In this document: positions 23,583 through 62,256 of the stretch, piece by piece
Layout of the letters: each line of letters opens with the position of its first letter
How positions within the stretch are numbered: position 1 is the first letter of the stretch
Assembly: GCA_016214745.1 (NCBI GenBank)
Contig: JACRNW010000001.1
Coordinates: 67,150 to 131,149, forward strand
Length of the DNA: 64,000 nt
Origin: Candidatus Falkowbacteria bacterium
Lineage (GTDB): Bacteria; Patescibacteriota; Patescibacteriia; XYB2-FULL-38-15
Direction: 5' to 3'
Translations under genes and position numbers: made by a program
The notes under the pieces: model-generated
The model's database searches: none
What the model saw: only the letters and a program-made list of their open reading frames with translations
Told to the model about the DNA's origin: nothing

Positions 23583-23960
23583 TTATTTACGGCCCTTAAA
23601 TTTCAAAATACTTGACCCCAAAAGATTTGCAATTTCCGTAACTTCGACCAATAACTTATTGATTGCGACCCTGTCTCCCTTACCGCTGTCGCGAAGTAAT
23701 GCCAACCAATATTTTGTTTCATTGGCAGATTTTAACGCGATATTTATAAAATTGGTGAAATCTTTTTTAGATCCACAGGCCTGTGCTTCAATAATATTTG
23801 CTCCAATGCTCGTTGCGCTACGAAGCATTTGTCTAACTATTACTTGGACGGAAAAATCCTTCTTATCAAGTTGATCTATAAATCGAATAATAGCCAAAGA
23901 AAACCTATAAACTTTTTCTTTTAGAAAAGTTTTATATTCTTTATTGTCCATAACTTTCAA
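23583..23960 (-). CDS. four-helix-bundle protein (23S rRNA intervening-sequence protein family, PF05635)
   Basis: Family-typical FSLAIIRFIDQL...RQMLRSATSIGANIIEAQAC...ALKSANETKYWLALL. Confidence 0.7.
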   Translation of the reverse strand: MKVMDNKEYKTFLKEKVYRFSLAIIRFIDQLDKKDFSVQVIVRQMLRSATSIGANIIEAQACGSKKDFTNFINIALKSANETKYWLALLRDSGKGDRVAINKLLVEVTEIANLLGSSILKFKGRK

Positions 23961-24692: not shown

Positions 24693-24750
24693 GGGAGTCC
24701 TGCCTTTAGGCAGAGACTGGAGTTTGTCTCGCCCTAAAGGGCGGTCTCCG
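24693..24750. repeat. REP-like hairpin pair (types A and B) flanking the RAYT gene
   Basis: GGAGTCCTGCCTTTAGGCAGAGAC and GTCTCGCCCTAAAGGGCGGTCTCC. Each folds as a GC stem with a TTTA/TAAA loop. Type B is roughly the reverse complement of type A. Confidence 0.6.
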
Positions 24751-25285
24751 GTTCGTTAGTTATAAAATCAACAATCGGATATAATTCAAAACACGAGTCA
24801 AACCACTCTTCTCCTTTTATTTTACTCCAACTTTTCGCGCTTGAAAAGGGATAACCAAAAACGCCGACCAAATTTTTACAAAACCCATGTTTTATTGGAT
24901 TTTGGTGAATGTAATTAAAATGTTTCCAAAAATCCGCTTCGTCGCGGATTGAATGGTCAAAATATTGATACCAGATTTTACGGCCTTTCTCATTTTCCGA
25001 TTTATTTAATTCAAAAGAGCTTTTGCCGTTAATGAAGTTAATAAATTTAGATAAATTTTCTCCGTTAAAAATTTTAAACAACAAATGGAAATGATTATCT
25101 AACAACACCCAGGCGTATAAATGAATCTCAAATTTTCGGAGTCCTGCCTTTAGGCAGAGACAAAATAATTTCTTTTTAGAATCCATGTCAAAATATGGTT
25201 TCCGGTCCACAGTTCTCGCGGTAATAGAATAAATTGTGTTGTCGAAAAAAATATGTGGCGGATGGTGATGTTGCGAGTGAAGCAT
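24734..25285 (-). CDS. REP-associated tyrosine transposase (RAYT; IS200/IS605 Y1-transposase-like)
   Basis: IHLYAWVLLDNHFHLLF is the HuH motif. 183 aa, flanked by REP hairpins. Confidence 0.68.
   Translation of the reverse strand: MLHSQHHHPPHIFFDNTIYSITARTVDRKPYFDMDSKKKLFCLCLKAGLRKFEIHLYAWVLLDNHFHLLFKIFNGENLSKFINFINGKSSFELNKSENEKGRKIWYQYFDHSIRDEADFWKHFNYIHQNPIKHGFCKNLVGVFGYPFSSAKSWSKIKGEEWFDSCFELYPIVDFITNEPETAL
25139..25162. repeat. REP type-A copy lying inside the RAYT coding sequence (in frame, encodes LFCLCLKAGL)
   Basis: The 24-nt ggagtcctgcctttaggcagagac is identical to 24694-24717. Confidence 0.6.
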
Positions 25286-29406: not shown

Positions 29407-30669
29407 TTATTGCGTGGCCGACGGATCCTGTGTTAAATCAATTCCTACTTTTAACGTACTTTCATCAATCACTGGTTCGGGCGGCGGAGGCGGCGGGACA
29501 ACTTTAACTGGCGTATAAACTTTTACCGTGTTTGTATTTGTTTCAGGAGTAACATTAACATCCGGATTTGTATTACCCAAGGATTCCGGCGAATTTGTCA
29601 GATCGGGATTTTCATTGACACTGCATCCTTCGCAAGGGGCCGGCAGAAGATTCGCGGCAACCGTAATGGCATCAGCGGCAATCTGCTCGGCCTGTTTAAC
29701 CAATTCTTTGCTTTCAATTGTTTTAGTCAAGGCAATTTCCAAATCTTTTTGATCCAACGCTTCTTTTGCTTCACCCAAAACAACCTTTGCCTGGTCGGCC
29801 GTTTGCTGGGCGACAAGAGTCGCGGCCGGATCAACCGGTAAAGTTAAATCACTAACTTGTCCCTGAACTTCCGCCACTTTAACTTCAACTATTCCAATTT
29901 TTTCTCCCACTCTCTCTAAAACATCCTCTTCCATCTCTCCCGAGAAAATCATTTCTCCCTGCGTGTGTTTTTCCACAATCATAGCAAGAGCTGCGTCACT
30001 CGTTTCATCCGCTAAATCTAAACTTTGATTTATGTTCTGCGTCGCATCATTAAGTTCTGGCAATTCATTCGTAGCCTGAACTAAATCTTCTTGATATTCA
30101 GTTGCTTTATTATCAACAATTTTGGCCACTTCAACCGTGGTTTCGGCAGATGACTCATTCTTCAAACTTTCTAATTTATTTTGGACTGTGGAAATTTCTT
30201 CTTTAAATTTATCCATGGCTACATTAATCTTTTGAATCTTTTTCTGGTCGGAATCAGTATTTCCTTTTATCTGTTTTATTTCATTAATTCTCTTTCCGGC
30301 CAATTCAACGTGGATTTTAGCCGATTCCTTTTTATCAAACGTCAGTGCCACTTGGACTTTTTCTGAAGCAATTTTCAAACCATAAAGCGCGTCGCCCGGC
30401 AAAGCCAGTTGGGAAGCGCTAACCGATAAACCGCTGCCTAAAACAAGCGCCACAACCGAAACAAGCGCCAAGACCGGCCGCGCCGCCAATTTCATCACTC
30501 TCCACGGAAAAACTATTTTTGATAATTCCAGAGCCCATTTTTCTCCAGCCGTGCTATCCTGCAAACTCCTTTTAACTTCAGACATCAAAAACTCCCGATT
30601 GGATTTTTTCCATTCGGTTCTTGGTCCGGAATTTCTAAGCGCTTTAAGTTGTTTAGTTATATCGGACAT
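29407..30669 (-). CDS. putative anti-sigma factor-like single-pass membrane protein (DUF5667-like) with a coiled coil and a Pro-rich tail
   Basis: Immediately downstream of the ECF sigma gene. TM helix LAARPVLALVSVVALVLGSGL. Long coiled-coil region and a PPPPPPEP tail. Confidence 0.4.
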   Translation of the reverse strand: MSDITKQLKALRNSGPRTEWKKSNREFLMSEVKRSLQDSTAGEKWALELSKIVFPWRVMKLAARPVLALVSVVALVLGSGLSVSASQLALPGDALYGLKIASEKVQVALTFDKKESAKIHVELAGKRINEIKQIKGNTDSDQKKIQKINVAMDKFKEEISTVQNKLESLKNESSAETTVEVAKIVDNKATEYQEDLVQATNELPELNDATQNINQSLDLADETSDAALAMIVEKHTQGEMIFSGEMEEDVLERVGEKIGIVEVKVAEVQGQVSDLTLPVDPAATLVAQQTADQAKVVLGEAKEALDQKDLEIALTKTIESKELVKQAEQIAADAITVAANLLPAPCEGCSVNENPDLTNSPESLGNTNPDVNVTPETNTNTVKVYTPVKVVPPPPPPEPVIDESTLKVGIDLTQDPSATQ

Positions 30670-30672
30670 AAT

Positions 30673-31254
30673 TTAATTTTTTTGCGCTACTTTTTCTTTT
30701 AAGGCGGCGACTGCCCGATGGAGCAGAACTCGGACCGCGCCTTCTGATTTTCCGAGTATCTCTGCCGTTTCTTTAACACTCATTTCTTCAATGAACCTCA
30801 GAACAATTACTTCACGATACTCGTCTCTTATTTTTTGTAAAGATTTTTTAACGTCTTCAAGGTCAGAAGCCAGATTAATTTTTTCCACCAAATCCTGTTT
30901 TGTATCAATGATTTCAACTCGCGGCTTTTCTTCTTCACACGCTTCTTGCGGCAAGGCAATAAATTCTTTCTGATCTTTTGACCGGTAAAAATCTATCACT
31001 GCGTTTCTCGCCGCCTGGTAAAGAAAGGCCCGCAAATTTTCAATGACCTCAGAACCCATTTCATTTATGTATTGCCACGTTTTCAAAAAAACATCTGCGG
31101 TTAAATCTTCCGCTTCTTCCTTTCGGCCAACCTTGAAATAAACAAACCGGTAAATCTGATCAACATAAATATCGTAAAGTTTGCCGTAGACTTCTGGGTC
31201 ACGGGTAGCGCGGAGTTTAAGGAATAAATATTGTTCTTTCAAACTTCTACTCAT
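30673..31254 (-). CDS. RNA polymerase sigma-70 factor, ECF subfamily
   Basis: Region 2 (DLTADVFLKTWQYI...FLYQAARNAVIDFYR) and region 4 (REVIVLRFIEEMSVKETAEILGKSEGAVRVLLHRA). Confidence 0.85.
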   Translation of the reverse strand: MSRSLKEQYLFLKLRATRDPEVYGKLYDIYVDQIYRFVYFKVGRKEEAEDLTADVFLKTWQYINEMGSEVIENLRAFLYQAARNAVIDFYRSKDQKEFIALPQEACEEEKPRVEIIDTKQDLVEKINLASDLEDVKKSLQKIRDEYREVIVLRFIEEMSVKETAEILGKSEGAVRVLLHRAVAALKEKVAQKN

Positions 31255-31601: not shown

Positions 31602-31877
31602 ATGGCCAACCAAAACCCAATTCGCGTTTCCGTATCCGAAGCCGCCCGCCTCTTTGGCATTAATCCCCTAACTGTCCGTCGGGCGATAAAAGATCAGCAA
31701 CTCCGCTATGTCGTGGTTCGCGGAAGATACAAAATTGACTTCGCGAGTCTCGTTAAATGGTCTCAACAGCGGCCGCTTGTCAAATACAAAACCGAAACCA
31801 AAGGACTGGGACAATACGTAGAAAAATGGCGAATTAAAAATACTCTTTATTCTCCAAATCCCAAATCTTCTGAATAA
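31602..31877 (+). CDS. small helix-turn-helix DNA-binding protein (excisionase/MerR-like HTH_17)
   Basis: VSVSEAARLFGINPLTVRRAIKDQQL HTH. Divergently oriented from the sigma gene across a >80 % AT spacer. Confidence 0.5.
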   Translation: MANQNPIRVSVSEAARLFGINPLTVRRAIKDQQLRYVVVRGRYKIDFASLVKWSQQRPLVKYKTETKGLGQYVEKWRIKNTLYSPNPKSSE

Positions 31878-33118: not shown

Positions 33119-33147
33119 AGCTTAGCAAATTTTAAACGTTTTGTCAA
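33119..33147 (-). promoter_or_regulatory. sigma-70-type promoter (TTGACA-17-TAAGCT) for the GT4 gene. The -35 sits inside the small palindrome TTGTCctcTTGACAA
   Basis: Read on the minus strand: cctcTTGACAaaacgtttaaaatttgcTAAGCT. Confidence 0.4.
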
Positions 33148-33221
33148 GAGGACAATTACAAAAACCGACCTTTCGGCCGGCTTTTACCAATTACCAATTA
33201 CTATTTACTAATTACTAATTT

Positions 33222-41691: not shown

Positions 41692-42436
41692 AGCCCCAGT
41701 TCAGGGGCAGCGGATCAGCTGGACCAACTTGCATCGGCCCATTTGACCACATCTCGCACCCCGTCTGCTGGGGTGCAGGGATTTCCGGGGAGGGAGAAAC
41801 GGAAACCCCCACACTCTCCTCCTCGTCCGCCATGTGATGGCGGACTTACGAATTGTCCCTCCGGGAGGTTGCTACGGACGCTGGTTCCGCAGGTTGCAGC
41901 CGCCCAATCGGTTGTCGACGCTCCAGAATGCATCCGGAACGCCGCCAAGCGTGGCGCTGTGAGAACCCTGCAGAGTGCCGGGCGGGTAGGGACCAACGCA
42001 GCCCCAGAACGGCGGCGCAAGTTCGGCCACCGTCTGGTACTCAATGTACCAACCCGGATCGAGGGCCACGCTGAAGCAAACGGAGCTCACGCTCGTCGCC
42101 TCAACCAAGACGCTCCAGGGACCGGTGCAGACAAGACGGCCGTCAAGACCGTCAGTCGGACCCATGGAGATCGTCGTGCCGACGCAGCCTTCGATCGCGA
42201 TCCTCGGAGCGACGGCGCCCGCGTCCCAGCAGTGAGTGTACCTGCCGGGGCCGGTGCAGCCGTCGTCTACGACCGTGTCGCAGTCATCATCCGTCCCGTT
42301 GTCGCAGATCTCGGGGCGGACCACGGAGCAGCTCGTACTGCATCCGTTGTCGATGAAGCCGTCACAGTTGTCGTCCAACCCGTTGCCGCAGATTTCCGGC
42401 GGCACGGGTCCGCAGGTCCCGCAGGAGTTGAGTAAC

Positions 42437-42574
42437 CCTTCGTCGATCGAGCCGTTGCAGTCGTTGTCCACGCCGTCGCAGGTCTCGGGCGAACCCGCGA
42501 TCTCGCCGGCGCAGACGCCCCAGCGACCACCGCTGCAGGTCTGGGTACCACGGGCGCAAGCGCCCATGTCCGTC
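42437..42574. repeat. 138-bp repeat, identical to 43158-43296 (Cys-rich repeat unit)
   Basis: Direct comparison. Encodes ...TDMGACARGTQTCSGGRWGVCAGEIAGSPETCDGVDNDC in the true frame. Confidence 0.8.
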
Positions 42575-43157
42575 CGGCTGAGTGGTGCCGTCGACGCAGG
42601 AGCAACCCTCGTCGATGTCGCCGTCGCAGTCGTTGTCGATCGTGTCGCAGGATTCGGAAGCGGCCGGAGCGACGTAGCCGACGCAGACACCCCAGTAACG
42701 TCCGTCCGTGCACGTCTCGAGCCCACTCACGCAGGCCCCGAGGTCCGTCCCACAAGCTCGGGTTGCCCCGGGCGTGCAGATGCAGTCCTCATTGACGAGA
42801 CCGTTGCAGTTCTCGTCCAACGTGCCGGTGCAAACTTCCGGGGCGGGTCCGACGAAACCGGTGCAAGCGTTCCAGCGGCCCATGACGCAAGTCTGGGTTC
42901 CGCGAGAGCACTCGCCCGTGTCGTCGCCGCAGGGCTGGGCCGTACCGTTCACGCAAGAACAGCCCTCGTCCACTTCGGTGTCGCAGTCGTTGTCCAGCGT
43001 GTCACAGGTCTCGGGGGCAGGAGGCAGGAAGCCCACGCCGCCGCAGTCGGACCACTGTCCGGCTCCGAACCCGTTGTTCAAACAGGTCCGGGTCCCCATG
43101 ACGCACTCGCCGAGGTCGGTACCGCACGACTCGGAAACGCCGATGGTGCAGGTGCAC

Positions 43158-43296
43158 CCTTCGTCGATCGAGCCGTTGCAGTCGTTGTCCACGCCGTCGC
43201 AGGTCTCGGGCGAACCCGCGATCTCGCCGGCGCAGACGCCCCAGCGACCACCGCTGCAGGTCTGGGTACCACGGGCGCAAGCGCCCATGTCCGTCC
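43158..43296. repeat. 138-bp repeat, second copy
   Basis: Identical to 42437-42574. Confidence 0.8.
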
Positions 43297-44766
43297 TCCG
43301 CGAGGAGCGGATCACAGACCTCGGTGTCGGGGGCGATACCCGTGCAGTCGCTCCAGAATCCGCCAATGCAGAACTGGGCACCGAGCGTGCACTCACCCAT
43401 CTCCTCGCCGCAGAGGCGAGAAGAAGTTCCGACGCACTCGCAGCCTTCGTCGATCGTGGTGTCGCAATCGTTATCCACGCCGTCGCAGGTTTCGGAGGCG
43501 GGACCCGTGCCAAGGCACAGTCCCCAGTGACCGCCCATGCAATACTGGAGGCCGGTGGCGCAGGCGCCGATGTCCGTACCGCAGACGCGACCGTCGCCGG
43601 ACCGACATTCGCAGTCTTCGTCGATCGAGCCGTCGCAGTCGTTGTCCGAGCCGTCGCAGTACTCCGGGGTCACGACGCCGCAGGAGCCGCACGCATTGAG
43701 CAGCCCCTCGTCGACGCGACCGTCGCAGTTGTCGTCGAAACCGTTGCAGATCTCGGCCGACGGAAAGTGCTGGGGCTGACATGGGCCGTAACCCGAGTCA
43801 TCCGCCAGACAGAACATCCGACCCTCGGCACAAGCGCCGAGGAATCCCGGAATCATGCAGTCGATCGGCAGGCCGGTGTGATCGCAGGCGCAGCTCTCGT
43901 CGACTCGTCCGTCGCAGTTGTCGTCCACGCGGTTGCCGCAGACTTCCGGATTCTCATCCGGCCGAGTCGTGGGCTCGCAGACGTCGGAGTAACCCGATCC
44001 GTCCGCGAGACACCGCATCTCGCCGACCGCGCAGACGCCGGGAATGAGGGTGTTGCAGGGAATGACGTCGCCCAGGGGGCAAACGCCCTCGCCGCACACA
44101 CCGTCTTCGTCGGTCTCGCCGTCGCAATCGTTGTCCACGCCGTCGCAGGTCTCGGTCGTGCCGGCGCAATCCGGCGTGCCGGCGCAGTGGCCGGTCTCGT
44201 CGCAGTACATGCCGAGCGAACAGTCGATGAACGCATTGCAGATCGCGCGGCACTCGCCGCGGAAGCACTCTCCGACTTCGCAGTCGGAGTCCGAGGTACA
44301 CTCGTACCCCGCGTAGAAGGTGGTGCCCCCGCCGCCGCAGCCGAAGCTCGCGGCGCCGAGCACCGTGGTACACACGCACACCAAGATCCAGTTCGTCCAG
44401 TTCCTCATGTTCTCCCTTTCCATCTTCCTGTCCCTCCTCTTGTGCGGTGGAGCCGCACGCGGCAGATCCGCCGCCAAAAACCGAACTACCAACGTCAATA
44501 CCGTGCCTTGTTTACGGCACGGCAAACTCCTCCGCACGGATGTGCGAAGGAGAGATTACCAAAATTCCTAATTGTCAACGAACAGCAGTTTTTGACCTTT
44601 TATCTTTATTTCACAACAAGAAAGAGGGTTTTTATCCCCCTCCTTCTCGGTCAAAAACCGCACACTATAATTTAACATAAACTACAAATTTGTCAAGAGG
44701 ATAAAACAAAAACAGAGGATTTGACCCCTGCTTTGTTAAAACGTTTTATTCTTTATTTTTTTACTG

Positions 44767-46085: not shown

Positions 46086-46469
46086 TGGTGGAGATGGCGG
46101 GAATTGAACCCGCGTCTAGAAGTCTTCGACAAAACGAATCTACAAGTTTAGCTAAATTAAATTTTTAAAACACAAGGTATAAATTTAGCAAAATCCTTGT
46201 GCCCGAGGCCTATTAATTTTCAAAAATTTCTCTAAGCCAAAGAAATTTTCTATCTCGGTTATGACACCGGGACCCGCCTACCGAGAGTCGGCGGCCGATG
46301 TGCCGCGGCTAGTTAAGCCGTGGCAGGAGCAAAGCTCGGAACGCGAAAAGCGCTCTTTACCTTGTTAAATAAGTTTGCACTTATTGATTTTGCCAAAGTT
46401 TTGCGAGATTGTGGCAATACTCGACTTGCTCATTTTGTAAAGAACTCCTATCGAGGCCTGTCATCCCCA
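46086..46469 (-). ncRNA. ssrA: tmRNA (transfer-messenger RNA)
   Basis: 3' end ...GACGCGGGTTCAATTCCCGCCATCTCCACCA (T-arm plus acceptor with encoded CCA). A candidate 5' end GGGGATGACAGGCCTCGATAGG pairs with the 3' acceptor strand. Directly follows smpB. About 384 nt. I could not resolve the tag reading frame. Confidence 0.6.
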
Positions 46470-51654: not shown

Positions 51655-51690
51655 AATTAAAAATAAATAAAATTTTCAATTTTAAAAACT

Positions 51691-51732
51691 CTGTCAACCT
51701 CCCTTGACAGATTTTTTATTTTGTGGTATAGT
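51691..51732 (+). promoter_or_regulatory. near-consensus sigma-70 promoter (TTGACA-17-TGgTATAGT) overlapping the perfect palindrome CTGTCAAcctcccTTGACAG
   Basis: -35 at 51704-51709, extended -10 at 51724-51732. The 7-bp inverted repeat arms span 51691-51710. Confidence 0.55.
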
Positions 51733-52265
51733 TAAATGTCTGATAAAAATAGTTCGTTTTAAACTAAAGGCAAATTGCGTTTTTCCGCTTGAATAAAGGC
51801 CTTTATAGATCCCCGAAGCTGTTTGGCTTGGCAAATTTTAGTGGTAATTGGCTTATATTGAGAAGCCAGATTTACCCTCGTTCTTTATCAATCACCAGGC
51901 CAAACGACTCTGGGGTTCTATGGCAGTACTTTTGCGGCGAACCACAGTTTAAAGAGTAAAAGTTATAAAAAAGTTGAAATGATAGAGAGTGCTTTCTACA
52001 TTAGTCCACTTCTCTTAAACTGCGGTTTCCTGCAAAGGATGGTACTTTGACAAATTGAATAACAACGGGCTTTAGCTCTCCGCCGACGAAGCGGATTGAT
52101 GCGCGCCTGATGAAATAGAGGGATAAAATCCTCTTTCTCAGGCTTAGGCCTGTTGACGATATATAAAACAAAACCCCCGGAGCGTGGTTGTTCCGGAGGT
52201 TACAAGTTTGGACACCATAACCGGCTTCGCGAGACGCGGGGCCAACGAAGGGAAGGAGTTCCTAG

Positions 52266-53090
52266 ATGACGAAGACCTTCGCGACGATGTTCGTGTTCGC
52301 GATGCTCTGCGTCCCGGCGATCGCCGAGGCGCAGCAGCAACTGGCCGATGGCGAGGCGCGTGCGCTCGTTTGCGGACCCGGAGAAATCCAGGTCTGCACC
52401 GAGACGCAGGCCGACGGCTCGGCTCCCCGGGTCATGTACCTGAGGGGAAGCCCGGTCATCGACTGCGTAGTTCGTTCCGAGACCGGAATCCAGCTCGAAT
52501 GTGTGAAATGGGAAGACGCCTGCAAGCGGGAATCCTGCGACAGGCGCGGCGGAAACTGGCACTGGGATGAGAGCTCGTGTCACTGCGACTACGAACGGCC
52601 GAGGGAAAGCCCTCCGCCGTCCGCGCCGCCAGCTCAGCCTCCGGGCCCGACGACGCCTCCGGTTCAACCCGGCCCGACGCCGACCTGCCCGGACTGCAAC
52701 GTGAGCCTCACGGTCTGTCCGAACGAGGAGATCGCGAGACTCGCGAACGAGCTTGCGCCTCTGGCGCAGGTCGCTCCCGAGACCTGGATCGTCCGGTCCG
52801 ACACGGATGAACTGAGGACGCGAGTCCTCTACATCCGCGATCGGGCGGCGGTGTGCGGCGAAGATAGAATCTTCGTCGACGCCGAGCGAGTACTGGCGGC
52901 AATGACGCCGCCGGAACCGAGTACGCTCCCATCGGGACCGCCGATGTCGAGCTACGAGGACGAGGAGAACTTCTGCACCAATTCGTTCGGCGGCGTACTG
53001 GTGTGCATCGTGCTGCCGACCGTGGCGGCCGGTGCCGCCATCTTCCTCGGTGTCTGGTTTGGCACCGAGTGGGAAGCGACCCAGGAGTAG
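52266..53090 (+). CDS. secreted Cys-containing Pro-rich protein with a C-terminal TM anchor
   Basis: GGAAGGAG RBS. Signal peptide MTKTFATMFVFAMLCVPAIAEA. PPPSAPPAQPPGPTTPPVQPGPTP linker. C-terminal TM helix. Confidence 0.55.
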   Translation: MTKTFATMFVFAMLCVPAIAEAQQQLADGEARALVCGPGEIQVCTETQADGSAPRVMYLRGSPVIDCVVRSETGIQLECVKWEDACKRESCDRRGGNWHWDESSCHCDYERPRESPPPSAPPAQPPGPTTPPVQPGPTPTCPDCNVSLTVCPNEEIARLANELAPLAQVAPETWIVRSDTDELRTRVLYIRDRAAVCGEDRIFVDAERVLAAMTPPEPSTLPSGPPMSSYEDEENFCTNSFGGVLVCIVLPTVAAGAAIFLGVWFGTEWEATQE

Positions 53091-53172
53091 TGTTCGTCAA
53101 CCCGGGGTCGGCGAGGCGGAAGCCCGTCGACCCCACAGAAGCTTCTGCCCCGAGAGGGCAGGGAGGGATGAG

Positions 53173-54183
53173 ATGAAGAACGTGAACCTGTTCGGGCTGT
53201 TCGTGTGCGTGATGGTGCTGGCGTCCTGTCAGGACGTCCAGCTCCCCGATCCGATCCACGTGTGTGAGGACAGCAACAACGACGACGTTTGCGACGGCGA
53301 CCAGGACGGCGATTCCGTCCCCTGGCAGTACGACAACTGCCCGCGGGCCGACAACCCCGACCAGGCCGACTGCGACGGCGACGGGATCGGCGACGCCTGC
53401 GACGACTTCGACAACCGGGATGCCGGCGCCGATGCGGACGCGGATGCGGATGCGGATGCGGATGCGGACGACTACGAGGGCGACGAGCCCGGCGAGTGTA
53501 CGGACGACGCGGACAACGACCGCGATGGTCGCTTCGACTGCGACGACCCGGGCTGCGTGAGCGATCCGGCGTGCGTCGCGGCTCCGTTCTGCGGCGATCA
53601 CGCCTGCAACGACAGCGAGACCTGCGCGAGCTGCCCGGCCGACTGCGGCATCTGCTCGGCAACCTGCGGCGACTGGGTATGCAACGGTTCCGAGACGTGC
53701 GCGACCTGCGCTCACGACTGCGGCACCTGCCCGGCGCCGATCTGCGGTGACGGCATGTGCAACGGCACCGAAACCTGCGAGACGTGCGCGTCCGACTGCA
53801 CCGGTTGCGCCGGCGACATCTTCGTCACGATCCGCGTGACCTCGTCTGACGCCTACCCCGCCGAAATTCATGTCTACTTCGCCGCTGATCCCCGGGATGT
53901 GGATGGCACCGACTCGGGCATGGCTCCCTACCAGACCAGTTTGACCCAGGCTCAGGCCTGCGGCCGAGTGGAAGGGGTGGAGGTCAGCGCCCGTCAGTTC
54001 TCGACGGCCGACCGCCCGTGGTACGGAACGCTCGGGATCCTAGGTCGTCTGACGATCCAGGTGAACGGCGTCGCCTACCCGGATGCGGCTGCTGGTCGTG
54101 CGGCTCTGCCGCTGATCGACCAGCCGTGGGGCGACCCCAACATCCATATCTCCCGGGCAGTTCTCCACTGCCCCGGTTCGTAG
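53173..54183 (+). CDS. lipoprotein with thrombospondin type-3 Ca-binding repeats and four CGDxxCNGxETCxxCxxDCGxC Cys-rich repeats
   Basis: Start MKNVNLFGLFVCVMVLASC (LASC lipobox). DGDQDGDSVPWQYDNCPRADNPDQADCDGDGIGDACD is a TSP3 repeat. Contains a (DA)n tract. Confidence 0.62.
   Translation: MKNVNLFGLFVCVMVLASCQDVQLPDPIHVCEDSNNDDVCDGDQDGDSVPWQYDNCPRADNPDQADCDGDGIGDACDDFDNRDAGADADADADADADADDYEGDEPGECTDDADNDRDGRFDCDDPGCVSDPACVAAPFCGDHACNDSETCASCPADCGICSATCGDWVCNGSETCATCAHDCGTCPAPICGDGMCNGTETCETCASDCTGCAGDIFVTIRVTSSDAYPAEIHVYFAADPRDVDGTDSGMAPYQTSLTQAQACGRVEGVEVSARQFSTADRPWYGTLGILGRLTIQVNGVAYPDAAAGRAALPLIDQPWGDPNIHISRAVLHCPGS
53431..53472. repeat. hexanucleotide microsatellite (GATGCG/GACGCG)x7 encoding (DA)n
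   Basis: gatgcggacgcggatgcggatgcggatgcggatgcggacgac. Confidence 0.85.
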
Positions 54184-54295
54184 ACCAACCAACAACTTAC
54201 CTGTTTAGTCCCTTGTCCCGACGCAAGTCGGAACAATAACAGGCAAGTCCAACAACCACAGACGCGACCTAGGGCGGTTGCGACTGCTTCGACAA

Positions 54296-54333
54296 GGCCA
54301 GCTTTCCTCCGGATTGCTGGCCTTCTTTTTTTA
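54296..54333 (+). terminator. rho-independent terminator
   Basis: GGCCAGCtttcctccggattGCTGGCC then TTCTTTTTTTATT. Confidence 0.6.
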
Positions 54334-54452
54334 TTATCAAGCGAGTGAGACCCCGGCAAGGCGGGACGAGCGAGCGCAGATAACACGGAGTATTTAAAAG
54401 TAATATTTTTAATTTAATCTCGTTTTAATACAAACTGGCCAAAACCAGTGTT

Positions 54453-54494
54453 TTGTCACACAACCTTGACAAATCCGGCATTCCGTTGTAATCT
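54453..54494 (+). promoter_or_regulatory. sigma-70-type promoter (TTGACA-17-TAATCT) overlapping the palindrome TTGTCAcacaaccTTGACAA
   Basis: -35 at 54466-54471. A second hairpin CTGGccaaaaCCAG sits just upstream. Confidence 0.45.
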
Positions 54495-54592
54495 ATAATG
54501 TTAGTTCATTGAACAACCCTTGCCGCAAGGCGAGGTAAAAATATAGTAAGTAGTTCACCTAAACTAAACATGCCGTCAAGGAGGGAAACAAG

Positions 54593-56311
54593 ATGGCAGA
54601 GAAGAAGAGTGGTGGCCTGCACTCTCCGATCGACGGCCGGCTAATCGCCGGGCGTTACAAGGTCGTAGATCCCGAACCTATCGGCCGGGGCGGCATGGGT
54701 CTCGTCTATCGCGGTTTCGACATCCGCACGAAGAGATCCGTTGCCATCAAGATTCTGCACGAGCAGTTCCACGGTATGCCCGACGTGGTTGCTCGGTTCC
54801 GCACGGAAACCGATGCGGTGAACCGTGTCGGCCACGAAGGCATTGTTGTCATCCTGGACTGTGCCCAGCCGGAAGAAACTCCGGTCTTCTTCGTCATGGA
54901 GTACCTGGACGGGAAAACGCTCGCCCAAGTGCTCGACGAGAATGGCCAGAGAGGCAAGCCGCTTCACGTCCAGCACATCCGCTACATCGGCTTGAAGCTT
55001 CTCGAGACGCTGGAAGCGGTCCACGAAAGCGGAATTATCCATCGCGACCTGAAGCCGGAAAACGTCTTCATCCTCGGGCTGCTAAGCAAGCGATATCGCG
55101 TCAAGCTTCTCGACTTCGGGATCGCGAAGTTCAAGGAAGCCGATCCCAAGCTGACTCAGGTGGGCACGATAGTGGGCACGCCCCTTTACATGTCACCTGA
55201 ACAGTGTCGGGGCCTCCCCGTCGACTACCGAACCGACCTCTACGCGATCGGCTGCATCCTCTACGAGATGGCAACCGGCCGACCGCCTTTCGTGGGCGAC
55301 CTGAGCGAAGTCCAACAGGGTCACCTCTCTCGTCTCCCGGAAGCTCCGAACGATCTGAACGGGGAAATCCCTCCGGCGCTCAACGCGGTCATCATGACGG
55401 CACTAGCTAAGGAACCGGACAACCGATTCCGCGACGCCGAAACCATGCGCGAAGCGCTCGAAGACGCCGTCCCCGAGGACAAGATGTTCTGGCGGGACAG
55501 CCGGCCGCCTTCGCCGGTGAACGGCAGCAGGGTGCTCGCCACTCCGCCGCGCATTCCAACCGCGATGGAGGATCAGCCAACGTCAGAGCGGCTCGACTCG
55601 TCTAAAACCCCGACTCGTCTGCTCGCTGACAAGCGGCCGCCGGCCGGGATCGCCTTGGCGAAAACCATGACTCCGGCTGACCTGAAACGGGCAGTTGATG
55701 AGGAGACGGCGCACCAGTTCGCCAAGAACTTCGGCGTCTGGATCCTGAAGCCCTCGAGTCGGGCGGCAGTGATCGCGATCGGCAGTACCCTCCTCATCCT
55801 CACCATCGTGTTCGTTCTTCTCGCGGCTTACCCGCCCAACACCGGCAAGCGCGCAAGAACGGCCGACGCTGGCGTCGAGGTCAGCACGACGGCGGTTGTC
55901 GTTTCCGAGAAGGAAACTCCTCCGCAGCCGAGCGGCCAGCCCGACGTCATCGTCCTGCCAGTTCCGGTTCCAGTTCCTCGGGACGACGCGACAACCGACG
56001 AGCCGAACGAAGTCGTCGAGATGGACGCAGTAGAAACTGCGGCCAACGCTGGCCCACCGGACGGCTACGCCGAACTACTCGCGGCGGCGGAACACGCCAG
56101 GAACTGGCGCACGGCCGTCGGAAGACTCGAGGAGGCAACAGAACTCTGGCCTGAAGGACCAGATGCCTGGAAAGAACTGGGCAACGTCTTCATGATGCAT
56201 GGGGAAATTCGGAAGGCCAGAGAAGCCTTCCGGACATGCCTCGACCTTCTGCCTCCGGACGCGTTCGTCCAGCGGGCACAAGTGGAGGGACGACTCAGGG
56301 GCCTGCAATAG
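54593..56311 (+). CDS. Hanks-type serine/threonine protein kinase with a C-terminal TM segment and a TPR-like tail
   Basis: GGAGGG RBS. GRGGMGLVYRG (P-loop), VAIK, HRDLKPENVFI, DFGIAKF, GTPLYMSPEQ. A TM helix near residue 400. Confidence 0.85.
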   Translation: MAEKKSGGLHSPIDGRLIAGRYKVVDPEPIGRGGMGLVYRGFDIRTKRSVAIKILHEQFHGMPDVVARFRTETDAVNRVGHEGIVVILDCAQPEETPVFFVMEYLDGKTLAQVLDENGQRGKPLHVQHIRYIGLKLLETLEAVHESGIIHRDLKPENVFILGLLSKRYRVKLLDFGIAKFKEADPKLTQVGTIVGTPLYMSPEQCRGLPVDYRTDLYAIGCILYEMATGRPPFVGDLSEVQQGHLSRLPEAPNDLNGEIPPALNAVIMTALAKEPDNRFRDAETMREALEDAVPEDKMFWRDSRPPSPVNGSRVLATPPRIPTAMEDQPTSERLDSSKTPTRLLADKRPPAGIALAKTMTPADLKRAVDEETAHQFAKNFGVWILKPSSRAAVIAIGSTLLILTIVFVLLAAYPPNTGKRARTADAGVEVSTTAVVVSEKETPPQPSGQPDVIVLPVPVPVPRDDATTDEPNEVVEMDAVETAANAGPPDGYAELLAAAEHARNWRTAVGRLEEATELWPEGPDAWKELGNVFMMHGEIRKAREAFRTCLDLLPPDAFVQRAQVEGRLRGLQ

Positions 56312-56316
56312 GCCCT

Positions 56317-56368
56317 GGGGCAACCACGCAAGATGTCAAACATCAAGCGTGGCTGCCCCTCTTTTTTA
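56317..56368 (+). terminator. rho-independent terminator
   Basis: GGGGCAaccacgcaagatgtcaaacatcaagcgtggcTGCCCC then TCTTTTTTATTTT. Confidence 0.6.
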
Positions 56369-56383
56369 TTTTATAAAAAAACC

Positions 56384-56412
56384 TTGACAAAAAAATACTT
56401 TTGTGGTTAGAT
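56384..56412 (+). promoter_or_regulatory. putative promoter (CCTTGACA-17-TTAGAT)
   Basis: -35 TTGACA at 56384-56389. The -10 is weak. Confidence 0.35.
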
Positions 56413-56474
56413 ATAAAGTGCTCTAAATGGGCGCAAGGGGGAGGCACGGGGCCTCCCTTAGATTTTAGGAGGGA

Positions 56475-57563
56475 ATGGAGATGAGGTTCATCACCCTGAT
56501 CGTGGCGGTTCTTTTCGCCCAGAACGCGTTTGCCCAGACGTCGGAGTCGACCGAGCAGACGGAGCAGTCCGCTGCGCCGGTCATCCTCGGCGAAGCCGGC
56601 AACGCGGCTCTCACGAGCTGCCTCGAAGCGGACGACGGGACCCAGTGCTGCACCGACTACGGCGACTGCGTGCAGAATTTGGGAGACAACTCCGAGCAGT
56701 GCGCTGCGGTCGCCCGACTGTGCGGGCACCAGGATCTCGACGCCGCCATGCGGGAAGGCTGCCAGCAGCGGAACGCGATCGTACAGGGCAGCGAATGCGC
56801 CTGCGCCGCGGGCTTGAGCTGGAACAACGAAAGCGACAAGGTTTGCTGCACAGCAAACCCCGCCACCTACGAACGCCGGCGAAACGCCTGCGAGCATTCC
56901 GGCGGAACCTACCACTGCAACAGCCGGGGCGGATGGTGCGGCTGCCCACTCGGCATGAGCCACCCGATCGAAGAGGATGGCGATGTCGACTACTCCTCCT
57001 GCACCGGCGAAGCGGTGAACCGCGAACGGCTCCAGGCGATGCGAGACAACATCGCGACTCTTACTGCCGAGGTCGAGGAAGCCGGACAACAGATCGCCGC
57101 CCTCCAAGCCGAGCGTGACGCCCTTCGAGCGCAGCTCGACCAGACTCTCAGTCAGCTGGCCGAGCTGGACAACCTCGAGGACACGGTCGGCGAGATGGAA
57201 CAACGGCTCGCCGAGATGGATGCCGAACTCTCGTTCTTGCGTCACCTGCGCGACCAGTACGAGGAATTCATCGCTCGGCAGGCGCAGACGATCGCCGATC
57301 TTGGCGGAATTCCTCCTCTCCCTCCGGGCATTCCGGAAGAGGATGAACCCCTCCCGGGAACAGCGGCGGCGGTCGCGGAAGCGGCAGGCGGAAGCCGGCC
57401 CGGACCGATGGAGCCACTACCCCCTCCCGAAGAGGAAGAGGGCAACTGGTGCTCCGAAAACGGCTGGGCATGCGCCGGTATCATCATCGGCGCAGCAGCC
57501 GCATTGGCCGGGGCAACCGTCGGGATCGTGGAGGCGACCCGCGACATTCAGGTCACTCAGTAG
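56475..57563 (+). CDS. secreted Cys-rich protein with a long coiled coil and a C-terminal TM anchor
   Basis: Signal peptide MEMRFITLIVAVLFAQNAFA. 16 Cys in the N-terminal domain. Heptad-like region LQAMRDNIATLTAEVEEAGQQIAALQAERDALRAQLDQ... C-terminal GIIIGAAAALAGATVGIV. Confidence 0.55.
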   Translation: MEMRFITLIVAVLFAQNAFAQTSESTEQTEQSAAPVILGEAGNAALTSCLEADDGTQCCTDYGDCVQNLGDNSEQCAAVARLCGHQDLDAAMREGCQQRNAIVQGSECACAAGLSWNNESDKVCCTANPATYERRRNACEHSGGTYHCNSRGGWCGCPLGMSHPIEEDGDVDYSSCTGEAVNRERLQAMRDNIATLTAEVEEAGQQIAALQAERDALRAQLDQTLSQLAELDNLEDTVGEMEQRLAEMDAELSFLRHLRDQYEEFIARQAQTIADLGGIPPLPPGIPEEDEPLPGTAAAVAEAAGGSRPGPMEPLPPPEEEEGNWCSENGWACAGIIIGAAAALAGATVGIVEATRDIQVTQ

Positions 57564-57592
57564 TTCTCGGGATTTCCTCCACCCGAGGACCA

Positions 57593-57641
57593 GGCCGACG
57601 TTTTGAGACAATCGTGTCTCGGACGTCGGCCTTTTTTTATC
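57593..57641 (+). terminator. rho-independent terminator
   Basis: GGCCGACGttttgagacaatcgtgtctcggaCGTCGGCC then TTTTTTTT. Confidence 0.65.
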
Positions 57642-57642
57642 T

Positions 57643-57684
57643 GTCAACTCCCCTTGACAAAACTTAAAAAATATGGTATATTTA
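57643..57684 (+). promoter_or_regulatory. sigma-70-type promoter (TTGACA-17-TATATT) overlapping the palindrome CTGTCAActccccTTGACAa
   Basis: -35 at 57656-57661, -10 at 57679-57684. The element closely matches the 51691 element. Confidence 0.5.
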
Positions 57685-57877
57685 CTTGTTCTGAAACGAA
57701 TGGAAAACAGTATCTACATAAACAAAATTGGATCCTGTAGTAGTTTGGTTTGATACCTGGGTTGCCTCCTCCTCAACCTCTTGGTTTTCAAATCAAACTA
57801 CTCAAGGACCCAACAAAATTGGTCCAAGCAACTCGGGATGGGTCCCGGGTTGAGAGAGTTTGGAAAGGAAAGCGCTG

Positions 57878-58984
57878 ATGGCGAATGGCAACAAGGTCTC
57901 AAGCTCCCTCCAGATTACCGGCCTGAAGCCCGACATCACGGAAGAGAAAATCCGTAGGGCTGTCGGCGAAATCGTCGGAGTGGGGCAGGACGGGATCTCC
58001 AACGTGGATATCCGGCGACGCGAAGATGGCAGGCCCGAGGAGCGAGGCGCGAATGCCGTCGTCGCCTTCAAGGATGTCGCAACGGCGACGGTGGCGAAGG
58101 CGGGACTTGGCGCAGGCAAGCTGTGCAGAATCCCCGACCTGAATCCCGACCGCGAGATCATGGCCGACTTCTACTTTCCTCCGCGGCCGCGCGACGAGAG
58201 GCCGCCGGCCACACCCCCACCCGCCGCACCCTCGATCGATCCGAACCAGCTTACGGCCATTGTGGCCGAACTCGAGGCCAGGCTCAAGGCCGACGCCGGA
58301 TTTCTGGCGAAGGTCAGGGGCAAGGACGGCGTAGCGCCGACGAAGGACGAGATCGTCGCGGCCCTCCGGTCCTTCCTGGTCACCGACCTCAAGGCTGCTC
58401 TGGCCCCGGTGCTGAAGGTTGACCTCAAGAACGACCCGACCTTCCAGGACCTGATCAAGGGCACTCCCGGCAAGGACGGCCCCGCGAAGGATGAAGTCAT
58501 CGCGGCGCTCAAGGCCGACGCCTCCTTCAAGGCGGAAGTCAAGGGCGAGAAGGGCGATGACGCACCCCGGTGGCCTCACTGGGTCTTGGTGGTTTTTGCC
58601 ACCTTGGCGTTCATCGTCATGCTCGGCCACCTCGTCTGCGGAAGCAGCGGCGACCAGGGTCCGCAGGGCGTCCAGGGCCAGGTCGGTCCCCAAGGTCCGC
58701 AAGGGCCCAAGGGCCCGATCGGACCGCGTGGTCCCGAAGGCTCCCAGGGTCCGCAGGGCGAACCCGGAGCCGCGGCGACCACAACGGTCGCACCGGCGCC
58801 GAGCGCGGAGCCGCCCGTCGAACCGGCGGCCACGGCGCCGCCCAGCCAGGCAACGCCGACGGGACGGCCCAACATCACGGAAGTGGATGGGCGCGAGCTC
58901 ATCCGCCACCAGCTGGACGACGTGTCCGTCCTATTCCGTGAGATCGATCGGAGGACCCGGCAACTGGAGGAAGCGCGCCAGTAG
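57878..58984 (+). CDS. membrane-anchored collagen-like (13 x G-X-Y) protein with GKDG...DEIVAAL repeats
   Basis: ATG at 57878 (MANGNK). TM helix [59 protein letters not shown]. Repeated GKDG(V/P)A(P/K)(T)KDE(I/V)(V/I)AAL(R/K) units resemble phage tail-fibre-like repeats. Confidence 0.58.
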
Positions 58985-62032: not shown

Positions 62033-62042
62033 ATCTTTAAAA

Positions 62043-62062
62043 ATTTAATGGCGGGTCCGAAG
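62043..62062. repeat. 20-nt direct duplicate of the tRNA-Asp 3' end (cgggtccgaagggatttgaa)
   Basis: Identical to 62181-62200. Sits 138 bp from the intact tRNA end. Confidence 0.7.
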
Positions 62063-62180
62063 GGATTTGAAGACTCCTCGGTGCAATCCTCGGCGCCGCA
62101 AAAAGGATTTAAGGGAGAGTATTCTCTCCAATCTGCTCAATTTGACAAACCAATCGCAAAAGCGATTGCTTTGTCAAAAC

Positions 62181-62256
62181 GGGTCCGAAGGGATTTGAAC
62201 CCTCGATCTTCTCCGTGACAGGGAGACGTGTTAGACCGGGCTACACCACGGACCCA
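62181..62256 (-). tRNA. tRNA-Asp (anticodon GTC)
   Basis: GGGTCCGTGGTGTAGCCCGGTCTAACACGTCTCCCTGTCACGGAGAAGATCGAGGGTTCAAATCCCTTCGGACCCG. 7-bp acceptor, GTGT/ACAC D stem, TCTCC/GGAGA anticodon stem with loop CTGTCAC, T-arm GAGGG-TTCAAAT-CCCTT. CCA is not encoded. Confidence 0.85.

Follow-up and report, generated by a model that had tools for sequence, protein, structure and literature searches.

A conserved inverted repeat over the −35 element of promoters in a divergent, GC-rich gene block of Patescibacteria

Class II sites of the CRP/FNR/NtcA kind (TGTGA-N6-TCACA, GTA-N8-TAC; dyads of 16 or 14 bp) are centred at −41.5, and lux-type boxes are 20-bp dyads with a CTGT-N8-ACAG core, centred at approximately −42.5. 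The GlnR/TnrA box of Bacillus and Paenibacillus, TGTNA-N7-TNACA, occupies 17 bp (PMC6191146). Here we analyse a 64-kb window of Candidatus Falkowbacteria (Patescibacteria), the window being the whole stretch of DNA under study, in which three promoters, termed P1, P2 and P3, carry an inverted repeat whose right half is the −35 hexamer. The dyads are confined to a block of GC-rich genes, and at orthologous promoters of related bacteria they are conserved with strict spacing. Judging from sequence, the dyads of P1-P3 are best explained as copies of one cis-element of 22 bp, centred approximately 38-39 bp upstream of the predicted transcription start. An earlier sequence-only reading had pointed out inverted repeats with the −35 as their right half at three promoters of the block, and direct reading of the window confirmed them. 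Their parts and immediate surroundings are as follows.

51690-51711, + strand: P1 dyad, TCTGTCAA (51690-51697), loop CCTCCC, TTGACAGA (51704-51711), perfect 8+8
51704-51709, + strand: P1 −35 element, inside the right arm of the dyad
51712-51722, + strand: T-run of the P1 spacer, TTTTTTATTTT, directly 3′ of the hairpin, which is the geometry of a terminator
51724-51732, + strand: P1 extended −10 element, TGgTATAGT
54434-54449, + strand: small terminator-like hairpin, ACTGG-CCAAAA-CCAGT, its U-tail overlapping the left arm of P2
54452-54473, + strand: P2 dyad, TTTGTCA (54452-54458), loop CACAACC(T) / CACAACCT, TGACAAA (54467-54473)
54466-54471 and 54489-54494, + strand: P2 −35 and −10 (TAATCT) elements, driving the Ser/Thr kinase-TPR gene at 54593-56311
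57592-57639, + strand: strong intrinsic terminator, belonging to the coiled-coil gene and abutting the P3 dyad on its 5′ side; an 88-nt fold at −35 kcal/mol
57640-57661, + strand: P3 dyad, TCTGTCAA-CTCCCC-TTGACAAA
57642-57647 and 57654-57659, + strand: P3 core, TGTCAA and TTGACA (the −35 element) around the loop CTCCCC
ending at 57682, + strand: P3 extended −10 element, TGgTATATT, driving the collagen-like gene at 57860-58984

The coordinates given earlier were correct for P2 (54453-54472) and for the perfect 7+7 repeat of P1 (51691-51710), the full dyad there being 8+8; those given for P3 (57643-57662) were 2 nt too high, the true span being 57641-57660.

All three predicted promoters fit the sigma-70-type organization (TTGACA, a spacer of 17±1 bp and TAnnnT). 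At P1 and P3, TTGACA is followed after 17 nt by TATAGT or TATATT with a TG extension, and the hexamers matched the consensus at 11 of 12 positions in a consensus scan; P2 (TTGACA-17 nt-TAATCT, with a perfect −35) was read by eye and is missing from the list produced by that scan. We found that TGTCA-N5-9-TTGACA gives five strand-matches in the 64 kb against 0.05 expected, five or more being reached in none of 100 shuffles. Moreover, TGTCA stands upstream of only three of the nine TTGACA-N16-18-TAnnnT sites in the window, namely P1-P3, and in each case at an offset of 7. The possibility, raised by the sequence-only reading itself, that the half-site precedes TTGACA at chance frequency can thus be set aside for the window. 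Exact TGTCA-N8-TGACA occurs three times in the window, and all three sites are those of P1, P2 and P3. This is not dispersal of the type of repetitive extragenic palindromes (REP) or miniature inverted-repeat transposable elements (MITEs), there being three copies in 64 kb, all at a −35; nor were further copies found outside orthologous promoters in 110 loci, unrelated Firmicutes terminators excepted.

Orthologues of P1 were gathered with patterns describing the −35, spacer and −10, from which the left arm was excluded, and further lineages came from loci anchored on the kinase gene (loci are given here by L numbers). A first pattern scan over genomes returned about 80 chance or terminator matches in unrelated bacteria, and these served only as controls. 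In a metagenome scan, 7 of 10 matches were P1 orthologues followed by GC-rich DNA, each of them with TCTGTCA exactly 7 nt before TTGACA. The left arm of P1, (T/A)CTGTCA, lies exactly 7 nt ahead of TTGACA in 12 of 12 lineages; the intervening 7-nt loop has many substitutions and no indels, and the sequence 5′ of the arm cannot be aligned. At P2 the left arm, TTGT(C/T)A, is found at N7 in 11 of 13 lineages, across six distinct upstream contexts, and P3 carries the dyad in 5 of 8 lineages. Two of the latter, L105 and L110, keep TGTCA at N7 although the loop is different, the upstream sequence unrelated and the terminator 80-150 nt away, which speaks for a constraint on geometry that is tied to the −35 and not to termination. 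The −35 and −10 are themselves kept in orthologues. The consensus of the 28 instances is T-Y-TGT(C/T)A-N8-TGACA-R-A, with C always preceding TTGACA, and the loop length is constant in all of them (TGTYA-N8-TGACA) despite saturated substitutions. Information content in the arm, loop and upstream sequence was 1.93, 1.02 and 0.72 bits at P1, and 1.75, 1.15 and 0.58 bits at P2, respectively.

Two features expected of an operator are thus found, dyad symmetry at a fixed spacing and a half-site more conserved than its neighbouring sequence. An arm that keeps its spacing as loop and upstream flank drift is what the site of a dimeric protein should show, and the feature common to the three promoters is best explained by a protein reading both arms. 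It is quite possible, if somewhat short of probable, that the dyad is the operator of a dimeric protein that competes with sigma, and that at P1 it has a second use as a terminator. A dimeric DNA-binding protein would recognize both arms at their fixed distance and sit on the −35; being there in competition with sigma region 4, it would repress promoters of very high intrinsic strength. Expression of the leader RNA together with the Cys-rich genes, of the kinase and, in some lineages, of the collagen-like gene would thereby be coupled. At P1, the dyad with its invariant T-run would double as a Rho-independent terminator of the Wzz operon. A repressor is favoured because promoters so close to consensus need no activator.

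An activator site, at which a dimer at approximately −38.5 would recruit RNA polymerase in a class-II-like manner, is very improbable. The dyad does overlap the −35 as do CRP, FNR and NtcA class II sites, and its spacing to the −35 is fixed. Activator-dependent promoters, however, normally have a poor −35, whereas here TTGACA is perfect with 17-bp spacing, P1 and P3 have an extended −10 in addition, and the dyad centre is about 3 bp nearer to the start than −41.5. The two exceptions at P2, L105 and L107, bear on the same question. In both, a MITE-like element of about 102 bp (L105 8434-8543; L107 112-220), with 21-nt terminal inverted repeats CCCCATCCGAGATAAAGGTAA / TTACCTAAATCTCGAACGGGG and TTG on both sides, is inserted into the TTG of the −35 with duplication of the TTG, leaving the old left arm about 110 bp upstream of a regenerated TTGACA. 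The P2 disrupted in this way is still a complete promoter, contrary to what an activator site would suggest, and tolerance of the insertion fits a dispensable negative element. The two copies of the MITE-like element are considerably diverged and the P2 upstream sequences of the two lineages differ; the element has no copies in the window. Also in these relatives, GC-rich hairpin repeats (…CCCCTCGCCCC…GGGGAGAGGGTTRGGGTGRGGGGG) recur in a REP-like manner in intergenic regions of the block (L105 8255-8365 and 11825-11870; L107 1-35), and they too are absent from the window.

Several observations, however, weigh against an operator. Neither the window nor the surroundings of the block in any relative yielded a cognate regulator, and no lineage has a DNA-binding gene in or beside the block. 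The right arm is inseparable from selection on the −35, so that the left arm alone is informative, and a terminator hairpin is enough to account for P1 in full. The bases flanking the core are complementary to each other in 23 of 28 instances (C…G at P1, T…A at P2), and the sole core substitution, C→T, keeps a G·U pair, both of which are expected from base pairing. In the loops only one strand is rich in C, a bias not expected of a symmetric protein site, and the half-site centres are 13 bp apart, exceeding classical one-turn operators. Finally, the P3 dyad is missing in 3 of 8 lineages, and two promoters of the block, the first two of the following sites, are always without it.

56384-56412, + strand: promoter of the coiled-coil gene (56475-57563); no dyad, upstream only a T-rich terminator tail
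44667-44696, − strand: promoter of the MopE-repeat gene; no dyad (…TTGTTTTATCCTC-TTGACA), T-rich terminator tail
33141-33155, − strand: site at the GT4 promoter, TTGTC-CTCTT-GACAA, TTGTCCTCTTGACAA; arm spacing 5, not 8

The control shared by the block genes, which the sequence-only reading had proposed, therefore does not extend to the block as a whole. Its proposal of a dimeric regulator fares better in part, in that the left arm is indeed constrained at fixed spacing while loop and flank drift, but the cognate protein was not found. The GT4 site, taken in that reading for a weaker relative of the three dyads, does exist; with arms 5 nt apart instead of 8, however, it is not the same element.

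As the cognate regulator, the helix-turn-helix protein encoded at 31602-31877 had been suggested. Homologues of this 91-amino-acid HTH_17 ('excisionase family') protein, more than 1,000 in number and 63-98% identical, occur in Magasanikbacteria, Nomurabacteria, Buchananbacteria and others, over many classes of Patescibacteria. This distribution is far wider than that of the lineages that have the cassette, and we found no support for the protein as a specific regulator of the dyads. There is no dyad upstream of its own gene, and it has no informative relative of solved structure. Its conservation is unusually high for a DNA-binding protein of this size, and it could act throughout the phylum, as a nucleoid protein or as a regulator. 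Apart from it, a single sequence-specific DNA-binding factor was found in the window, a sigma factor of the extracytoplasmic function (ECF) type (30673-31254, − strand), which adjoins a DUF5667 protein (29407-30669); we rejected it as a regulator of the dyad promoters because these are not ECF-type.

The complementary flanks (C-G versus T-A), the retained G·U pair and the strand-asymmetric loops speak instead for a hairpin that acts without any regulator. The dyad would then be a Rho-independent terminator or insulator in the RNA of the upstream gene, its 3′ arm and U-tract being reused as −35 and spacer, and P2 and P3 would be either weakened derivatives or accessory hairpins that follow the main terminators. 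We consider this account, for the dyads as a whole, a serious rival to an operator, if a somewhat unlikely one. Its strongest case is P1, where the 8-bp stem with UUUUUUAUUUU folds at −12.3 kcal/mol when flanking A/U pairs are counted (z = −6.8) and is flagged as terminator-like, where 12 of 12 orthologues fold at −7.8 to −9.1 kcal/mol with an invariant T-run, and where the Wzz stop codon (51654) lies 36 nt upstream of the dyad with no other terminator in between. Similar architecture is found elsewhere: L061/L096 carry, 28 nt behind an S1-like gene, TCTGTCA-TATCCT-TGACAGA and the T-run of P1, albeit with an arm spacer of 6 nt versus 8, and unrelated Firmicutes contigs have TTGTCAA-N6-TTGACAGA followed by a T-run. 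A stem-loop, a U-tract and a co-directional upstream gene come together at P1 only, and its predicted hairpin very probably terminates the upstream Wzz operon.

At P2 and P3, in contrast, these features are not combined: the hairpins fold at only −3.5 to −6 kcal/mol, their stems are not followed by a U-tract, and a separate strong terminator lies directly upstream or far off, which supports an operator. Furthermore, the loop length is fixed throughout the 28 instances, whereas terminators tolerate loop indels, and the P3 arm of L105 and L110 keeps its place beside the −35 at a distance from the terminator. In L098, a co-directional gene ends 4 nt ahead of the same promoter core and there is no hairpin. 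This promoter core occurs without a hairpin in L095, L048 and L058 as well. In L061 (1525-1570, − strand; identical to L096), a Patescibacteria contig labelled Saccharibacteria, the whole sequence reads TCTGTCA-TATCCT-TGACAGA-TTTTTTATTTT-gTGaTATAGT, a promoter core nearly identical to that of P1 in an unrelated context.

The dyad might also be functionless. P1 and P3 would be paralogous promoters, and the palindrome would have arisen by duplication or gene conversion and been kept perfect by intrastrand template switching against a selected −35. P1 and P3 are indeed alike in the left arm, the C-rich loop, the −10 and the first transcribed bases (TTAAATGTCTGA versus TTTACTTGTTCTGA); the P3 palindrome of L001 extends to arms of about 13 nt (AAAGTTTTGTCAA / TTGACAAAACTTT), resembling a template-switch product, and the block is a recombination mosaic. 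The left arm, however, is invariant in 12 lineages at P1 and 11 at P2 in spite of saturated substitution at the neighbouring bases, P2 is no copy of P1 in sequence, and P3 of L105 keeps the arm and its spacing despite a different loop and flank. We regard a functionless dyad, therefore, as improbable. Least probable of all is that the dyad serves as the core site of a site-specific recombinase exchanging gene cassettes. Inverted arms around a 6-8 bp spacer are reminiscent of tyrosine-recombinase core sites, and coding sequences between the conserved promoters are swapped among close relatives. There is, however, no recombinase in or beside the block in any lineage and gene order is invariant; the spacers differ among the dyads, and strand exchange would therefore be blocked. 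On the same three grounds, an integron-like cassette site was rejected. Two further candidates were dismissed. If the left arm were the −35 of a divergent promoter, a −10 should follow on the minus strand, but no conserved one lies at 16-18 bp, either in the window or in the orthologues. An UP-element or other general contact for RNA polymerase does not fit a region that is C-rich, not A/T-rich, and an arm that the other promoter-like sites of the window lack, those of the tRNA-Asp and GT4 genes among them.

The block in which the dyads are found is itself unusual. The window has approximately 40% GC and contains blocks of approximately 61-68% GC, which encode a MopE-repeat protein, two Cys-rich secreted proteins (one of them matching TSP3 weakly, below threshold), a Ser/Thr kinase with TPR repeats, a membrane coiled-coil protein and a collagen-like protein. 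GC content at third codon positions (GC3) is 0.74-0.82 in block genes versus 0.33-0.50 in flanking genes. The gene order is SmpB, AI-2E, two hypothetical genes, PDZ, Wzz, two Cys-rich genes, kinase, coiled-coil, collagen-like, two hypothetical genes and PPDK, and the same synteny and GC contrast were seen in all lineages fetched around kinase relatives, at least 13 related lineages. Since the block is syntenic with the same GC contrast everywhere, it is not a recent island or acquisition, which corrects the sequence-only reading, in which these genes were an acquired island; a recent genomic island beside the transfer-messenger RNA (tmRNA) gene was rejected on the same evidence. The kinase at 54593-56311 is 100% identical to a protein annotated Candidatus Falkowbacteria, and its full-length relatives are all from Patescibacteria; kinases of Myxococcota match it in the catalytic domain only, at approximately 40% identity.

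We compared the block (window positions 41872-44537 and 52266-58984) with those of L001, L003, L004, L100 and L105. Relative to L001 and L004, flanking proteins are mostly 83-90% identical (the lowest approximately 46-64%), whereas block proteins are 24-60% identical; against the closest relative, L105, DNA identity is 92-96% in the flanks, between which the block forms a mosaic. Promoters and leaders of the block, which are AT-rich, nevertheless keep 75-87% DNA identity over 300-550 nt. No mechanism known to us would account for hyperdivergence together with a GC content that stays high. One of the relatives, OZ246416.1 (L004/L006, an 886-kb chromosome), is titled 'uncultured Gammaproteobacteria bacterium'; it has Patescibacteria-type synteny and flanking proteins 84-90% identical to those of the window, and this taxonomic label is probably wrong. 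In L001 and L108, a gene of the IVP/bAvd type lies between Wzz and P1, related to the 23S-rRNA-IVP four-helix protein encoded in the window at 23583-23960.

The MopE-repeat gene (41872-44537, − strand) is split into three overlapping open reading frames that differ in frame. Within it lie a perfect direct repeat of 141 nt (42435-42575 and 43156-43296, 721 nt apart) and 7-9 diverged copies of units of approximately 60-80 nt. This structure could be due to frameshifts, to assembly collapse or to repeat-mediated variation.

Downstream of P1, a leader RNA of approximately 470-525 nt (51740-52265, + strand) precedes the first Cys-rich gene (52266-53090) and has 75-86% DNA identity across relatives. 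An alignment of the orthologues from L001, L003, L004, L077, L078, L097, L100, L101, L105 and L108 gave a consensus fold of 80 pairs, with 96.5% of cells paired. Compensatory changes occur at 11 pairs, whereas slid controls gave 2-6 and shuffles 5.5±1.5. The fold has long-range helices and lineage-specific hairpin insertions, and the leader is single-copy in the window. None of the leaders has an Rfam match, and that of P1 may represent a new class of structured RNA or leader.

Other features of the window lie outside the block. The tmRNA gene (46086-46468, − strand; tag ANLFNKVKSAFRVPSFAPATA) stands beside smpB, 5 kb upstream of the block, and neither an integrase nor an att-like repeat links it to the GC-rich genes. 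In the tRNA-Asp region (62040-62256, − strand), the gene is followed by a palindrome with a 16-bp stem, TTGACAAAGCAATCGC / GCGATTGGTTTGTCAA, and approximately 110 nt beyond the palindrome by a second copy of the tRNA-Asp 3′ end (TTCAAATCCCTTCGGACCCG, then CCA), an arrangement that resembles a scar left where something was once inserted at the 3′ end of the tRNA. An IS200-like Y1 transposase is encoded at 24734-25285.

The context of the dyad is more surprising than the dyad itself: hyperdivergent GC-rich genes stand behind conserved AT-rich promoters and a structured leader. A broader and, in our opinion, unlikely view is that the locus is a hypervariable host-interaction locus under dedicated control, of which the dyad would be one layer together with the near-consensus promoters and the 470-nt leader. 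The block would be a fixed array of genes for surface or secreted proteins (Cys-rich, kinase-TPR, coiled-coil and collagen-like), with coding sequences at approximately 65% GC (GC3 approximately 0.8) in a 40% GC genome that are replaced, or diverge extremely fast, between near-identical strains, and a dyad-binding protein would switch the array on or off in a manner resembling phase or antigenic control. Patescibacteria, the candidate phyla radiation (CPR), have very few recognizable regulators and are mostly uncultured, and to our knowledge almost nothing is known about their transcriptional regulation. A dyad conserved in at least 13 lineages at defined promoters thus offers a concrete handle on how episymbionts control a block of surface proteins that probably mediate contact with the host. 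Its main value is in the locus that it marks, where conserved AT-rich promoters and a large structured leader frame GC-rich, divergent coding sequences (24-60% identity).

A literature search found no description of the dyad motif or of GC-rich blocks in Patescibacteria, and we do not assign the dyad to any named operator family. Like lux boxes, it is a dyad of approximately 20 bp over the −35, and P1 has the CTGT…ACAG ends (CTGTCA…TGACAG); unlike in lux boxes, however, CTGT and ACAG of P1 are 12 nt apart, not 8, the −35 is of consensus sequence, and no LuxR-type gene was found. With class II sites of CRP, FNR and NtcA, it shares the overlap with the −35 region, the fixed distance from the start and half-sites that begin with TGT, but the half-site, the spacing and the centre (approximately −38.5) are different and the −35 is perfect, which places it outside that class; class II sites, like lux boxes, go with weak −35 elements. 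The closest likeness in the half-sites is to the GlnR/TnrA box, as TGTCA/TGACA is a permitted variant of its inverted 5-nt half-sites TGTNA/TNACA; GlnR and TnrA are, moreover, dimeric small helix-turn-helix proteins, the sites of which can overlap promoter elements and repress. The dyad spacer, however, is 8 nt in 28 of 28 instances instead of the 7 nt of the box, no GlnR/TnrA-like gene was seen, and the target genes have no link to nitrogen metabolism. P1 also resembles the terminator-promoter overlaps of compact genomes, with a stem-loop and then a U-tract 3′ of a co-directional gene, a module found in L061 as well; it is at P2 and P3, without a U-tract and with separate terminators, that the resemblance ends, and the stem with only three G-C pairs and the strictly fixed loop length differ from such overlaps, too. 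The dyad itself is most likely a conventional element, an operator and/or a terminator-promoter overlap, placed in an unusual, hypervariable GC-rich block.

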